From Microbotryum violaceum (lineage: Eukaryota): a stretch of DNA of 64,000 nt. The notes beneath the pieces are model-generated. The model was not told where the DNA came from, did no database searches, and saw only the letters and a list, made by a program, of their open reading frames with translations. Location of the stretch: contig CDLV01000007.1 of NCBI GenBank assembly GCA_001244265.2, forward strand, positions 1,612,001 through 1,676,000, written 5' to 3'. This document shows positions 28,369 through 34,337 of the stretch, one piece after another; within the stretch, counting starts at the first letter, position 1; each line of letters starts with the position of its first letter. The translations under genes were made by a program, and so were the position numbers.

Positions 28369-30886
28369 TAAGAATTAGAATAATGAGATCAAACCTAATC
28401 GTAGTAGAAACTCTTCAGACTCTTAACCAATAACTGTGACAGTAACCGCATACAAATATAACGGCGATTTGTTTCTGTCGCTTCGAGACGTATTCACCGG
28501 TGCCCGCAATATGTGTCTTTGGAGGGGCCCACTTCAATGGCATCAATTTGATGGACTCAATCCAATGGGGTCAATTGCGCATCTCGCCACCGAGCTCGTC
28601 CCAGATTTGCGCGCCACGGCTTCTTATAGCTGGTGGGTGTACAAAGGAAACCGGAATGCGCTGCGATCACTTAATCCCTTTCTGACAAGGCGATGGACGA
28701 CCTGGCTGGAATTGATGATTACCGACCTCGAGCCATCTGCTGCGCAAACGTACGGCGCGCGCAGGCGAAACCCCGATGTGAAAGCTGAGGGACCCTTACT
28801 ACCGACCGTGGCTATGGTGCGTCAGCGCTACGAGGTCATGGGTCTGGAGTTGGGCGTCGTGGAGGAGGGAGCACAGGCGGGCCGCCAGACGCTCAAAAAA
28901 TTCAGGGAAGCGGGCTCCGCCCGCAAGTATCAAATTGACAAGTTAAGGATTCTGGAAAAGGTACGTTCGGGGACGTGATGGCGCATTGGCTGCAACAATG
29001 GTGGTGTCACGGCCATCGGTTCTCTGAACATCCCCTCTTTGTTCACAGGCTATCGGCTTGCACCCAGGGCATTCGCTGTTCGAGGACAAGTATTGGGCGC
29101 ACAAGCCTGTCATGGTCAAGCTCAGATGCCCAACTTGTGCCGCGGGAGGCTGTGTGGAACGCCGGTCGCCTTCACTCAGGATCTCATCCGCTGTAACTTA
29201 TGCGGATACTTACATAAGTTGCATGCCGAGATCTCCAAAGAGGAACAAAGGACGACAAGATGCATCATATGTGTGAACGTGGTGTCAACGAAGGATCTGC
29301 GCGCAGACGAGGTTTAGGAAGCTCTCTGGAACGTAAGTGGCCTAATGTATGCCGCTTTGTGGAACTCCCTGTGTTCCATACTTAATACGGATTTTTACTA
29401 CAGTGTTTCGCTTGCTAGTTCATGCGCATGGGCTTACAATCAGTGAGGCTTGGAGGCTAGTTAGGGTCCATGATTATGGCATCGGGATGGGCTCGGAGCG
29501 CAGGCACTGGCTGAAGTCTCATGTCCAGAAGAAAGCGTCAATCTCCAGCTGGTCCCGGGTAACAAGCTGGCATGGACTTTCAGCAATGCGAAGCAATTGA
29601 CAGGAAGCAAGAATCGGGAGTTTCACTTAGTGTGAGTCAGTATCCTGAATAGCATGGCAGAGTGGGCTGGCTTGGCTGACCGGCATTGCCTACTTGTCAC
29701 TCTTCATCAGTTGCAGGTTCCCACTGAGGCAATACTCAAGAAGACTTGGGGCACAAATGCTAGTTTGGTGAAGACATTTATCAAAGACACCAAAAAGACT
29801 TTCAAGCATCTGAACGTAGGCAAGTGACCAAAAACCAGTTTGCGCAGAAAAAACTATCAGGCTGATCCTTACCCCAAGCTCTTTCTTGCACATCGAACAT
29901 AGCCGCCTCCTTCTCCAGTGCGAAGAAGCTGGCGGCGGAACGGTACACCGATAATGATAGCGATGAGGATGGCCCTGTGAGACATCACTACTTCCCCATG
30001 TTGCAGAAGTGGTACTTATTTGCAATGCCCTTGGTCCAGATCATCCCACTGGGTGGGCATACAGCGTCCTGTAGAACCATGGCAGTTGTGTGATTCGGCC
30101 CCTGTATCGCTTCATGTACCATATCTCTTTTTGCGCTGTAATCGATGCTCTACTAAGGGGGTTTGCGATTGCTACAGCACACATATCAATGTTCGTACAG
30201 AGCCTAGGGCAGGCCGGCCTCAGTCGTTGCGCGGTGCTCCAAGTAGTAACAGCTTCGACTTTGTGACCATCAACTTGTATCTGCTTCATCTGCTAGAGGG
30301 TTGTACAGCCACGCCCTTAGACCTAACTGGTGACTGTCAGAGTGCATACAATGCGCTGTAGCAGCCACAAATGCGATCTAAAGTTTTGGAGCGTACGTGT
30401 GCCAATTCACGTAGGCCCCGGGCGTACCGACCTCGGACCCAGTACGCCTTTTAGGGCGGAGCGTGAGCCATTTGGGGCGTACTCTGCGCCAACAAATGTG
30501 CGGTACGCCCCGAAAAAAAACGAAATTGCTACAGCTTCCGCTAATCTTCATGTATCATCTTCCCTTGCCGTATACATACTTTTTGAGCGTAGTAGAGCAT
30601 AATAGAGCCAGCAGAGACGCCCATAGACGCCCTACATCACCTGTAGTACCCTGTCCGCCCCGGAGCCCACTCTCGACATGACCGAAGGCGGGCCACGGCA
30701 TTTGAGCGCTGAGCGCTGAGCGGCCAATTTGTGCCAGAAGTGTTCCACGGCATTCTTCAGTCTCCTGCCGCAACTCGGAGCCTACCACCGCCCCCTCGCA
30801 CTCACACTCGCAATCGCACACCCGCAACCACCTTGATAAACTGCAATCTCACCGCTTCACATTGACATCAACTAGTACCGACCATC

Positions 30887-32654
30887 ATGGACCGTCCTGG
30901 CATCAAGAACTGGCGTGAGTGCTTTTGCACGAGCTCGCTCTGACCTTATGGAGTTCGCACCTGACGTATGCTGAAAACGTCGGCGGGTGGTGTGTGGTTG
31001 AACTCGCGCAGATTGGCGAACAAAAGGATGTGAATCGTGAGTATTCCATTTCAGTCCCACACGGCTCCACGCGCAAGACCACGACTGGGCCTCGGCGAGC
31101 TTCCTTCGATGCGATTCCGTCAACGGTCCCCCTCTCCCGGGACGTGGGCGGATAGGAGCCGACTGCATCCGTGTGCACTTCAAAGTGCTACACCCGAGTG
31201 GGTATCATATACAGGGTTCTGAGCTGACGTATCCTCTGTCGCCTTCACATTGGCATGTCATGACGTCACGACCACAGATGGGCCAAGGACTGGTTCAGGA
31301 AAGAGCTCATCGGCGTCGAAGCCGAGGGCGTGCGAATCGACTCGGTCAAGGACGTCGAAGGTGACTGCGAAGTGGGGATGCGCAAGTCCAAACTCGTCAC
31401 CATCTACGACCAAAAGATCACTATGCTCTGGCGAGCCGGCGAGGGCGACGAGAGCGTGACGGGCAGTTTGACCGTCCACGAGGTCGCACACGACATGGAC
31501 GAGGATGACTACGTCTTCACCTCGACGCTCGACTCTGCCGCGACCAAGCAGTCGGATGCATTCAACACGATCGCGAGAAAGGCTTTGGCCAACAAGCTGC
31601 GCCCCATCTTCCAACGCTTCCCCGCCGATTTGATCGAGGCCCACGGCAGGGACTTGCTTTCCGACGTCGACGGAGGTTCCGGTGCCGGCTCTGGCGCCTC
31701 GACACCCGCTACGGCAACGGCTTCTTCTTCGGCGACGGCGAGCCAGTCCAAGCCGACGGTCCCGTTGGGTTCGTCGGTCTCGATCCGACAGGGCAAGAGC
31801 GGCCAGTCGTTCAATACGGCCGTCGTCAAGGCCGAGGGCGAGTTCATGTGCGACGCCGCGACGCTGTGGGAGTTCCTCACGAACGAACAAAAGATTCCAC
31901 TTTGGTCGCGCAACCCGGCCAAGTTTCGTCCAGAAGTCGGCGCCGAGGTCGAGTTGTTTGGTCGCAACATCACGGGTAAAGTCGAGGACGTCAAGGCGCC
32001 GACCTCGATTACGACCAGTTGGCGGGCACCAACCTGGCCCGAGGGATACTTTGGCACGCTCGAGACGACCTTGCACCAAGGCTCGGCTTCGACGACGTTG
32101 ACGTTAAGGCTTTCAGGCGTTCCGGTTGGAAAAGAGGACGAGGCTGAACGAAATGTGAGACTGCGCCTCGCTGTCTCTAGGAGAGTAGGGTACAAGTGGT
32201 ACTGATTTAAAGTTGGGACGATCGTTCTCACAGCTCACGAGCTACTACATCAACTCTTTGAAACAAATTGGGTCCGTATTCGAGTCTTTACCCTTTACCC
32301 CCCTCCCCTCCACTTCCACCCAGAGCGCAGCACCGAAAGCGTTAAACCCCTCCCAAGCCCGAGCGCGCGCACGAGCTCGACCCGGGGTCACCAAACCTTC
32401 CCCTTGGGTTATGGTCGGTAACACTAGCGCCGTCCTTGTTAGTGTCGGGATCGTTGCGGCGCTCGCGGCTGGGATCTACTACGGTCCTTCGGGTCCGGGA
32501 GGGAGGAAGGCTTGAGTTGGCTCATACGGTGGTGGTGGTGGTGGTCGAATGGGGAGGGAGGGTGAGTCGTTCTTTGGGTATGGACAATTTGAACTGAGTC
32601 ATCCAATTCTGTTCCTCTTGTTTTCCCTGAGACAGGTTGGGCACAATCCTTTGA
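30887..32654 (+). CDS. AHA1: Hsp90 co-chaperone Aha1
   Basis: Micro-exons give NWHWRTKGC.SWAKDWF; VEGDCEVGMRKSKLVTIYD; C-terminal START-like domain (LFGRNITG, WRAPTWPEGY); spliced end YYINSLKQIGLGTIL*. Confidence 0.92.
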
Positions 32655-32866
32655 CGGAACGCATAGTGATGATTCGCATAAAAGCAGGGACAGAACATTA
32701 CGTGCATGGGTCTAGAATCAGATTTTCGATTGATTTCCACTGGGTGCGAATAAGAAACAACTTTAGATTACACGATGCGAGAGAATAGACACGATCGCCC
32801 AGACAATGAACACCACAACGGTACGCCACCACCGCAATTAAGTTACCCATGCGGCCCCGAACCCAA

Positions 32867-34337
32867 TCAATCATAGTTGAACTTGATCGAGTGGCTCTCC
32901 ATCGTGATATCGCCACCTCGGTAACTCCCCCTCTTCTTCTTGTTCTTTTCCTTGGTGAACCCTTTCCCTCGCGTGACGAGAAGATCGGCAGAAGCTTTGG
33001 CGCCGTAATCCGACATCCCGGCGGGCTGAACAACCAGAAATGAACTTGGTCAGCGATCAAAAATGAACAAGTCAAAGACGAGGAGATCACTCGCCCTAGC
33101 CGCAAACGAGTTATCCTTCAACCTCGGATCCGCAAAGGTCACCTCCTCCGCCTTGACCCGTCGGAACGGGGCATTGATAACACGTTCCTTCTTCTTATTC
33201 CCTCCGTTGATACCATTCATAAGAGGGGTCGTGGGTTTAGGTGAAGCAACAGCGGGTACAGGTGTGAGCAAGGAGACAGGTTCGGGCGCTTTAGGAGATG
33301 CAACGACCTTTTGCTTCTTCTTGGTCGGTTTAGCTTTGATTTCCGCATCAGAGTCGGAGGAAGAGTCCGAATCCGAGGAGGAAGAGGAAGAGGAGGACGA
33401 ATCGGAATCGGACGAGCTCGAGCTGGAACCGGAATCTGAGTCGGAGGACGACTCGGCGGCCTTGCGTTTGTTGGAAGTCGCTTTCGGTGCGAGGGCCTCG
33501 ACGACTTTGGCTGCTGTGGCCTTGACCGGGACCTTCTTCTCCTTGTCCTCCTCGTCGCTCGAATCGTCCGACGAGTCGTCGGAATCAGAAGCCGTCTCGG
33601 TTTTTTTTGCTGATGTCGATGGTTTTTCCAGTACGGCAATTTCTTCTGCAACAGCCTTGGCCACCTTCTTGACCTTGTCGACGACCTTGCCGACCAAAGT
33701 CGTTGGCTTCTCATCCGCCTCTTCGTCCTCGGACGAAGCCGAATCCGAATCCAAACCCGAGCTCAAATCGGAAGACGAGCTCGAGTCCGATGTTTCTGCT
33801 TTATTCACAGCGGCTTTCGTGTCCTTTGACTTGGGTGCGACTTTGGAAGCTTCCTGCTCGTCGTCGTCCGAATCGTCCGAATCGTCCGAATCGTCCGAAT
33901 CGTCCGAGTCCGAGAGGACGTCGGCTGCCTTTTTCGTCTCCTTTTCCTTCGAAGATCGTTTGCTGCGAACCATTCTCGGATGTCGTCAGCACAACATCCC
34001 CACCAACCCTTAGGCTCAGATGGCCCACTCACGCCCTATTCAAATCCACTTTAGCCTTCAACAGAGCCAACAAGGCGCCTTCGCTCGGTCGAGGATCGAG
34101 TTGGTCGGTGATCAAAGGGGTGCCCTTCTTGAGCAACTCCTTGGATAGGGCCGAGGCCGTTTTGGGGAGCTTGTGCGAGAGGAGGAAGAGGTGGATGTGC
34201 GAGTGGGTTTCTGGTGAGGTCGAAGGGAGGTCGGTGCGAAGTGGTTCGAGGAGGGATGGGGAGGGGTCAGTCGGCTAATCTCGAAGGGAAGGAAGTGTGG
34301 ATCACTTACGGTGCAGTGCTTCTGTCTTGGCGTCCAT
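32867..34337 (-). CDS. SRP40: Nucleolar Srp40/Nopp140-like protein
   Basis: Alternating S/D-rich and K/A-rich tracts; SRP40_C domain PFRRVK..LKDNSF..YGAKASADLLVTRGKGFTKEKNKKKRGSYRGGDI..SIKF. Confidence 0.93.

Follow-up and report, generated by a model that had tools for sequence, protein, structure and literature searches.

The AHA1 gene of the anther-smut fungus Microbotryum violaceum appears to be a two-product gene, in which the choice made at the last intron would determine whether a soluble or a predicted membrane-anchored form of Aha1 is produced; the probability of this reading is put at roughly 0.8. The gene lies in a 64,000-nucleotide stretch of DNA (positions 1,612,001 to 1,676,000 of the forward strand of contig CDLV01000007.1, assembly GCA_001244265.2) that is referred to here as the window, and all coordinates are those of the window. 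Both AHA1 mRNAs exist, and the major one is the spliced, soluble form. Retention of the intron opens a reading frame that ends in a predicted transmembrane (TM) helix followed by a short basic segment, and this frame has been kept open in a wide range of related fungi.

AHA1 occupies positions 30887-32654 of the + strand, starts with an ATG at 30887, and consists of five exons and four introns of 97, 241, 79 and 364 nt, all of them GT..AG as judged by RNA contig joints. The length of the terminal intron had been remarked on in an initial annotation made from the DNA sequence, and at 364 nt it is indeed the longest of the four. The product has an Aha1_N domain (PF09229; E 3.9e-32, 111.8 bits against a cut-off of 23.6) and an AHSA1/START-like domain (PF08327; E 4.9e-13, 49.8 bits against a cut-off of 22.1), both found with Pfam, and on the strength of both domains it is assigned to the Aha1/AHSA1 Hsp90 co-chaperones, with stimulation of the Hsp90 ATPase as its predicted activity. 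Transcript evidence comes from three public sequencing runs, X15, X5 and X1, whose status as RNA is shown by GT..AG splice joints; such joints are found at introns 1-3 in X15 and X5, and at intron 3 only (of introns 1-3) in X1. Run X5 is from a diverged relative that is about 93% identical to the window, and a fourth run, X2, of low depth (3-4x), probably represents DNA from a close relative and is uninformative about expression. The exon bounds, which were set by RNA contig joints, and the parts of the two alternative ends are as follows, P0002 being the orthologue from M. silenes-dioicae.

30887-30914, + strand: exon 1, with the ATG at 30887; RNA joint 30914>31012, GT..AG, in X15 and X5; translation as in P0002.
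31012-31036, + strand: exon 2, 25 nt, between RNA joints 30914>31012 and 31036>31278.
31278-32154, + strand: exon 3, encoding Aha1_N, a disordered interdomain linker and most of AHSA1 (Pfam; X15 and X5 RNA contigs across 31278-32154).
32155-32233, + strand: intron 3, 79 nt, GTGAGA..AG, constitutively removed (joint 32154>32234 in X15, X5 and X1).
32234-32271, + strand: exon 4, 38 nt, opening with CTCACG at 32234 and encoding LTSYYINSLKQI plus the first two bases of Gly323, common to both isoforms (sequence, RNA).
32272-32635, + strand: terminal intron or alternative coding region, 364 nt, with donor GTCCGT, a polypyrimidine tract at about 32606-32629, and an acceptor that reads ..GAGACAG (AG at 32634-32635) and ends at 32635.
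32273-32404, + strand: tail linker, residues 324-367, rich in S, T, P and A and then with a basic cluster, ARARARARPGVTKPSP (sequence, AlphaFold, alignment).
32405-32482, + strand: conserved Trp368 and predicted transmembrane helix, residues 369-393, VMVGNTSAVLVSVGIVAALAAGIYY (Kyte-Doolittle, AlphaFold, conservation).
32483-32515, + strand: conserved C-terminal segment GPSGPGGRKA and stop TGA at 32513-32515 (conservation).
32516-32635, + strand: non-coding remainder of the terminal intron, 3' of the tail stop (indels in X5, polymorphisms in near-identical pairs).
32636-32654, + strand: terminal micro-exon, 19 nt, with the third base of Gly323, LGTIL and the stop TGA at 32652-32654 (sequence, X1 RNA).

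The terminal intron interrupts the Gly323 codon after its second base, and the two readings diverge from that point. Splicing from GTCCGT at 32272 to GACAG at 32635 restores the codon (GG/G TTG GGC ACA ATC CTT TGA) and gives a protein of 328 amino acids with the short ending ..SLKQIGLGTIL*, exactly as initially annotated, and the joint is seen in RNA. When the intron is not removed the frame stays open for 81 codons to the TGA at 32513-32515, adding 80 residues for a protein of 403 amino acids. The description of an open intron of some 80 codons with a P/S/T/A linker, a hydrophobic stretch (SAVLVSVGIVAALAAGIYYG) and a short basic tail (PSGPGGRKA*, stop at 32515) is likewise exact in the sequence. 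The order of elements in this tail is a disordered linker, a basic cluster, a hydrophobic helix of 25 residues and the segment GPSGPGGRKA*, so that the whole reads GSVFESLPFTPLPSTSTQSAAPKALNPSQARARARARPGVTKPSPW-VMVGNTSAVLVSVGIVAALAAGIYY-GPSGPGGRKA*. The other introns, if retained, stop early: intron 1 at codon 9, intron 2 at its second codon, and intron 3 after 16 codons.

The predicted long form has the layout of a tail-anchored protein, from which a cytosolic orientation of its domains would follow. The best 19-residue Kyte-Doolittle (KD) window of the tail averages 2.0, and the highest such window in residues 1-323 is 0.61, the rest of the protein not being hydrophobic. The N-terminus, MDRPGIKNWHWRTK, is polar and without a signal peptide, leaving a single transmembrane domain (TMD) near the C-terminal end. 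An AlphaFold2 model built from a 32-sequence alignment has both Aha1 domains modelled well, with a predicted local distance difference test score (pLDDT) mostly above 85, residues 328-361 disordered (pLDDT below 50), and a single helix in the tail at residues 367-393 of 403. A hydrophobic stretch of 24-26 residues followed by 8-10 residues to the end is present in 32/32 aligned orthologues, and the net charge beyond the TMD is +2 in 24/32 and +1 in 6/32 of them. A Pfam match of the tail to SecE was below threshold (E 0.056, 13.8 bits against a cut-off of 22.7) and was set aside as generic similarity between TM segments.

How often such a tail would arise by chance was estimated from 20,000 dinucleotide-preserving shuffles of the terminal intron. 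An in-frame open reading frame (ORF) of at least 81 codons was obtained in 1921 of these, and since this is about 10% of shuffles, the open frame by itself is unremarkable. An ORF of this length that also contains a 19-residue window with a KD mean of at least 2.0 was found in only 30 shuffles, and one whose hydrophobic window lies no more than 20 residues from the C-terminal end in 8 (0.04%). It is the tail-anchor layout, and not the absence of stops, that is remarkable.

Transcripts of both forms were recovered. In X15 the joint that removes the last intron (32270>32635, skipping 364 nt) has a depth of 574.1, and an uninterrupted contig of 421 nt, spanning 32244-32664 with the whole of the terminal intron, has a depth of 243.1. 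The same branch occurs in X5, where the retained-intron contig (32244-32654) has a depth of 86.9 and the unitig from the acceptor onward one of 731, and the proposal that two transcript isoforms are made is thus borne out in both runs. Run X1 contains a fully spliced contig of 526 nt, joining 31790-32154, 32234-32270 and 32635-32758 with a depth of 16.2 at the last-intron joint, by which the 3' untranslated region (UTR) of AHA1 extends to at least 32758. Inside intron 3 the RNA depth is 0 in X15, X5 and X1, which excludes both contaminating DNA and unprocessed precursor as the source of the retained-intron RNA. Taken at face value, contig depths, which are a poor measure of transcript abundance, imply that the terminal intron is retained in about 30% (X15) and 11% (X5) of molecules, as against about 15% (X15) and 4% (X5) for introns 1 and 2. 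A contig that retains introns 1 and 2 (30885-31307) provides the background level for judging retention of the last intron; because both of these retentions give early stops, their joint retention looks like unproductive retention or nuclear precursor.

Two routes to the long form had been suggested initially, intron retention and alternative polyadenylation. The first stands, given the X15 contig at 32244-32664. Polyadenylation inside the terminal intron is unsupported, because the contigs that keep the intron extend across the acceptor into exon 5, a pattern that shows retention and not polyadenylation within the intron.

The tail is found in proteins well beyond Microbotryum. A search with the tail alone matched annotated proteins of M. 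silenes-dioicae (98%), M. intermedium (84%) and Leucosporidium creatinivorum (48%), and a whole-protein search returned 66 proteins at E <=1e-30, among which the tail is present in 32 named proteins (P0002-P0034 except P0023) from four orders of Microbotryomycetes and from Atractiella. The carriers belong to the Microbotryales, the Leucosporidiales, the Sporidiobolales (Rhodotorula, Sporobolomyces, Rhodosporidiobolus) and the Kriegeriales (Meredithblackwellia, Phenoliferia), with three unplaced Microbotryomycetes and with Atractiella rhizophila of the Atractiellales, an order that belongs to another class. Named proteins with the short end are those of R. toruloides (P0023, ..IGLGSML), Cystobasidium minutum (P0038) and Mixia osmundae (P0041). 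A search with the Leucosporidium tail alone returned only itself and M. intermedium, the word index used being too insensitive for so variable a linker. These 32 proteins, together with six DNA loci considered below, agree with the expectation that orthologous introns would be free of early stops and would encode a conserved TM segment.

Conservation within the tail is concentrated at its end. An alignment, A2, was made of 31 of the 32 tailed named proteins and the unnamed P0068, with P0015 left out because its model falls short by a few residues before the junction. Positions S380, G394, P395 and G397 are invariant in A2, and W368, G382, A389, A390 and G399 are at least 90% conserved. Mean pairwise identity among the 32 orthologues is 0.64 for the N-domain, 0.68 for the C-domain and 0.57 for the TM segment plus end, as against 0.32 for the interdomain linker and 0.22 for the tail linker (residues 324-364). 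The TM segment and end are thus about as well conserved as the Aha1 domains themselves (57% versus 64-68% identity).

Two sets of database models deserve separate mention. Atractiella rhizophila has two annotated models, P0034 and P0040, which may represent a single gene or two in tandem; the tail is complete in one of them, and the other joins ..KQIG straight to the second half of the TM segment, LIVGLIAAFLYGPSGPLKR, and may be a third splice variant or a model artefact. Nine unnamed proteins of the family (P0045, P0046, P0048-P0053 and P0055) end in read-through of intron 3 (..ETE.NV[RS]..), and these ends are a product of intron-blind gene calling on fungal contigs, not isoforms.

DNA of relatives was obtained by scanning metagenome contigs with A2, which gave 12 loci. 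Six of them contain the junction and enough downstream DNA (L003, L004, L006, L007, L010 and L011) and represent five distinct lineages, L003 and L004 being Rhodotorula glutinis-like and L007 Sporobolomyces-like. Of the remainder, L001 and L008 end before the acceptor, L005 and L012 stop short of the junction, and L002 is a short form that looks like cDNA. An apparent early stop in the L009 tail (1824-1868) is an artefact, since the end of that metagenome contig is Illumina adapter sequence. The window and 6/6 loci share an exon end ..AT[CT] GG, then a GT donor, an in-frame tail ORF with TM segment and GPxG end, and a stop. After the stop come, in 6/6 loci, 79-306 nt of non-coding DNA, a polypyrimidine tract, AG, and a micro-exon encoding (G)LG[TSA][IM]L*; exactly one acceptor candidate per locus passed the filter. 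L001 and L006 are uninterrupted at the other intron positions with the retained terminal intron present, and may be transcripts or intron-poor genomic contigs.

Both alternative ends, the tail frame and the micro-exon, are under deep purifying selection. The proportions of nonsynonymous (pN) and synonymous (pS) differences were compared for the codons of the TM segment plus end in the six lineages with DNA (the window, L003, L006, L007, L010 and L011; 15 pairs). In 15/15 pairs pS (0.50-0.83) exceeds pN (0.26-0.51), and the ratio of the corresponding rates (dN/dS), a check on the tail that had been advised at the outset, is 0.13-0.53 in the 9 pairs with finite dS. Near-identical pairs differ just 3' of the tail ORF and not within it. 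Between L001 and L006 the tail ORF has 0/235 nt different, and the next 66 nt have 4 substitutions and a 4-nt indel; between L003 and L004 the tail ORF has 0/223 nt different, the rest of the intron has a 3-nt indel, and about 175 nt of 3' UTR have 8 substitutions. In X5 there is a 3-nt deletion inside the tail ORF, and there are 3-nt and 2-nt indels after the stop. An overlapping gene on the minus strand was considered as a source of the conservation and rejected, only short unsupported ORFs being present there.

The donor of the terminal intron is atypical in all of these fungi. It reads GTCCGT in the window, GTTCGT in L011, GTCAGT in L009 and L010, GTTAGG in L003, L004, L007 and L008, and GTTAGC in L001 and L006, so that a pyrimidine occupies position +3 in every terminal-intron donor examined. 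The consensus donor is GTRAGT, and the donors of the other three AHA1 introns of the window are GTGAGT, GTGAGT and GTGAGA. Incomplete splicing of the terminal intron is probably caused by this weak donor.

Tails of a different kind occur at the same junction elsewhere. A profile search of 1.84 billion representatives led to 207 proteins that were fetched and classified. Of these, 129 were dropped when their alignment fell short of the core end, being either fragments or distant forms with a ..FGFG end that the profile did not align. The 78 that aligned to the end of the Aha1 core comprise 22 canonical proteins (at most 9 residues beyond it), 3 with 10-29 residues and 53 with at least 30, and in 52 of these 53 a hydrophobic window (KD19 >=1.5) lies no more than 25 residues from the C-terminal end. 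Among the 52 are nine whose tails have no sequence relation to the Microbotryomycete type (P0072, P0074, P0079, P0081, P0104, P0117, P0138, P0174 and P0178), opening with IGYV.. or MGLV.., which corresponds to a GTNNGT donor read in frame. Further examples with FGYV or other junctions were picked out by eye and stand outside the count of 52 (P0092, P0095, P0106, P0112, P0118, P0135, P0162, P0173 and P0197). The Aha1 sequences with unrelated, hydrophobic-ended tails are probably from Basidiomycota; the nearest Atlas clusters of P0117 (406 and 391 amino acids) are from that phylum, which is a lead only, and an Atlas search with the tail alone gave no usable match. The unrelated tails prove little by existing, since a predictor that overlooks the micro-exon will annotate any read-through; the point of interest is that nearly all of them have a hydrophobic end.

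These tails raise the possibility, offered at clearly less than even odds, that the terminal-intron switch is old and perhaps phylum-wide in fungal AHA1 genes, with selection acting on an anchored Aha1 as such. The same phase-2 intron would then lie in the Gly codon of ..[IF]G, and a hydrophobic end would have been kept in many lineages with no tail sequence in common (IGYV.., MGLV.., FGYV..). If this wide reading is correct, an accelerator of the Hsp90 ATPase would be stationed on the mitochondrial outer membrane or the endoplasmic reticulum (ER), where it could act in client release at import receptors or in the folding of cytosolic domains of membrane proteins, and the efficiency of splicing at a weak donor would set the ratio of soluble to anchored protein, possibly with stress.

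Several observations weigh against a selected, membrane-anchored isoform. The contig in which introns 1 and 2 are kept together is far from absent (depth 113.2 versus 651.8 spliced in X15, and 92.9 versus 2362.5 in X5), so that the last intron is kept only about 2-3 times more often, and X1 has the spliced form only, at low depth, the uncovered parts of that run not being evidence of absence. The 403-residue form of the window differs from P0002 at two positions only, S324F and T374I, and both of these fall in the tail, which suggests that at short range the tail is evolving faster than the core. Predictors that miss the 19-nt terminal exon read into the intron by default, so that an annotated tail is no evidence in itself, unlike the conservation of its sequence. 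Finally, the family median for the grand average of hydropathy (GRAVY) of the TMD is 1.47, and targeting rules give no clear organelle.

That last value also favors an alternative in which the tail is translated and selected and its helix is not an anchor, serving as a conserved degron that would make the long form short-lived, or as a helix through which a soluble protein oligomerises or binds partners. Within the TMD, G, A and S are abundant and show small-xxx-small spacing, and the segment is only marginally hydrophobic across the family; hydrophobic C-terminal extensions that arise from translation of non-coding sequence are quality-control signals, and the invariant GPxG end is odd for a tail-anchored protein, whose lumenal end normally varies freely. 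This end is unusually conserved for a lumenal stub. The alternative is nevertheless improbable, in view of the standard tail-anchor layout of 30/32 orthologues, which have a helix of 24-26 residues preceded by a basic cluster and Trp and followed by 8-10 residues with a net charge of +1 to +2. Moreover, the unrelated tails at the same junction share nothing except a C-terminal hydrophobic segment (52/53 tails of at least 30 residues), which points to selection for membrane anchoring as such.

More doubtful still is a reversal of roles, in which these fungi would depend mainly or solely on anchored Aha1 and the short spliced product would be minor or vestigial. Annotations within the Microbotryomycetes do include 32 named long proteins against one named short one, that of R. 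toruloides (P0023), but the spliced path is the deeper in both runs that have the two forms (574 versus 243; 731 versus 87) and the only one in X1, and the micro-exon and its acceptor are conserved in the window and in 6/6 other loci. The weakest alternative, that the retained RNA is an unproductive by-product of a weak site, the open frame functionless and the database tails artefacts of prediction, can appeal to the partial retention of introns 1 and 2, to intron retention being the commonest and mostly non-productive splicing variant in fungi, to ORFs of at least 81 codons in about 10% of shuffles and to the ease with which predictors miss 19-nt terminal exons, but it is hardly credible beside 57% identity, invariant G, P and S positions and pS above pN in 15/15 pairs across a fungal class, indels inside the ORF restricted to multiples of three, and an ORF with 0 polymorphisms beside downstream DNA that has them.

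Under the favored reading of AHA1 as a two-product gene, splicing of 32272-32635 would add the 19-nt micro-exon to give canonical soluble Aha1 of 328 amino acids ending in ..IGLGTIL. Where the intron is retained the ribosome would continue from Gly323 through about 40 disordered residues, the basic cluster, the helix of 25 residues and an end of the form GPSGPGG[KR][KRA], for a total of 403 amino acids. The non-consensus donor, with its pyrimidine at +3, would keep splicing incomplete, with the result that both forms are always made. The long form would be inserted post-translationally into an organelle membrane, its two Aha1 domains facing the cytosol and the basic cluster and Trp lying where the TMD meets the cytosol, and in that position could speed the ATPase cycle of Hsp90 locally at the membrane surface. 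That the retained form is translated and enters a membrane, which organelle receives it, and any control of the isoform ratio are inferences.

With regard to the target membrane, a GRAVY value of 1.75 separates tail-anchored proteins of the yeast ER (above) from mitochondrial and peroxisomal ones (PMC5450235). The TMD of P0002, which differs from that of the window at T374I, has a value of 1.93, and values above 1.75 are found in 7/32 orthologues. The moderate hydrophobicity of the TMD across the family and the tail charge of +2 make it somewhat more likely that the family is directed to the mitochondrial outer membrane, possibly to peroxisomes too, than to the ER, with the Microbotryum protein borderline to the ER. 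Mitochondria or peroxisomes are accordingly given a little short of even odds as the target; the ER is a possible but less favored destination, and some other membrane, or none, is unlikely.

The surroundings of the alternative ends contain two further features. A (GGT)n run, ggtggtggtggtggtggt, lies in the intron at 32525-32545, just 3' of the tail stop; X5 has a 3-nt deletion at 32528 within it, and the run is probably a plain microsatellite. The product of a convergent neighbor gene at 32870-33985 on the - strand is acidic and rich in serine; the last exon (32870-33049) encodes an SRP40_C domain (E 5.9e-22), by which the product is a predicted SRP40/Nopp140-like nucleolar protein. The stops of the two genes are about 215 nt apart, which means that their 3' UTRs must nearly meet or overlap, and X15 and X5 contigs are unbroken from 32635 or 32665 to 32900 between them.

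If the two-product reading is correct, the site of Hsp90 activation, and not only its extent, would be under control in a large group of fungi, which would bear on the part played by Hsp90 in mitochondrial import and in membrane-protein folding. Many basidiomycete database entries for 'Aha1' of 380-440 residues would then represent one of two isoforms. Public databases already contain the long proteins as unreviewed predictions; the novelty lies in recognising them as one of two conserved isoforms, and in the biology that this implies. No tail- or membrane-anchored Aha1 is described by title or abstract in the full-text literature searched, which covered main texts and only a minority of subscription journals. 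The same architecture is present in tractable yeasts such as Rhodotorula toruloides, which makes the idea directly testable.

Canonical Aha1 (yeast Aha1, human AHSA1) is a soluble cytosolic protein and the strongest known accelerator of the Hsp90 ATPase. The Microbotryum protein resembles it in having Aha1_N and AHSA1 domains and a spliced end of the usual ..IGLGTIL or ..FGFGAVL type, and differs in its second, predicted anchored product. Among other co-chaperones, FKBP8 (FKBP38) is tail-anchored, belongs to an unrelated family with FKBP and TPR domains, is anchored constitutively and does not activate the ATPase. The predicted long Aha1 would be like it in being an Hsp90 co-chaperone on an organelle membrane; FKBP8 is reported to bring the Hsp70-Hsp90 machinery to membrane-protein clients (PMC13470449).

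Alternative 3' ends are a known route to dual localisation in fungi. In Ustilago, alternative 3' splicing of glycolytic enzymes reportedly exposes a cryptic type 1 peroxisomal targeting signal (PTS1) and leads to dual localisation. For the yeast chaperone cofactor Fes1, 3'-end alternative splicing is reported to alter C-terminal targeting and to lead to dual localisation of Fes1L and Fes1S (PMC4831876). The signals in these cases are a nuclear localisation signal or a peroxisomal tripeptide on soluble proteins, whereas that of AHA1 is a predicted transmembrane anchor.

The proposed mechanism matches that of PTC7 of S. cerevisiae, in which retention of an in-frame intron adds a single predicted TM helix that directs the product to the nuclear envelope, the spliced form being located elsewhere, and the open intron is conserved across a yeast family (PMC3597508). 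The two are alike in that one gene gives two proteins and the predicted helix comes from an intron left open in frame. They differ in that the PTC7 intron lies near the N-terminus, is 3n nucleotides long, has no stop and is read through into the next exon, whereas that of AHA1 is the last intron, has its own stop and replaces the C-terminus; in the product, an Hsp90 co-chaperone in place of a phosphatase; and in the conservation of the AHA1 tail over at least one class of Basidiomycota. Beside PTC7, fungi would thus have a second well-supported example of an intron whose frame is kept open for a membrane anchor, with AHA1 by far the more widely conserved of the two.

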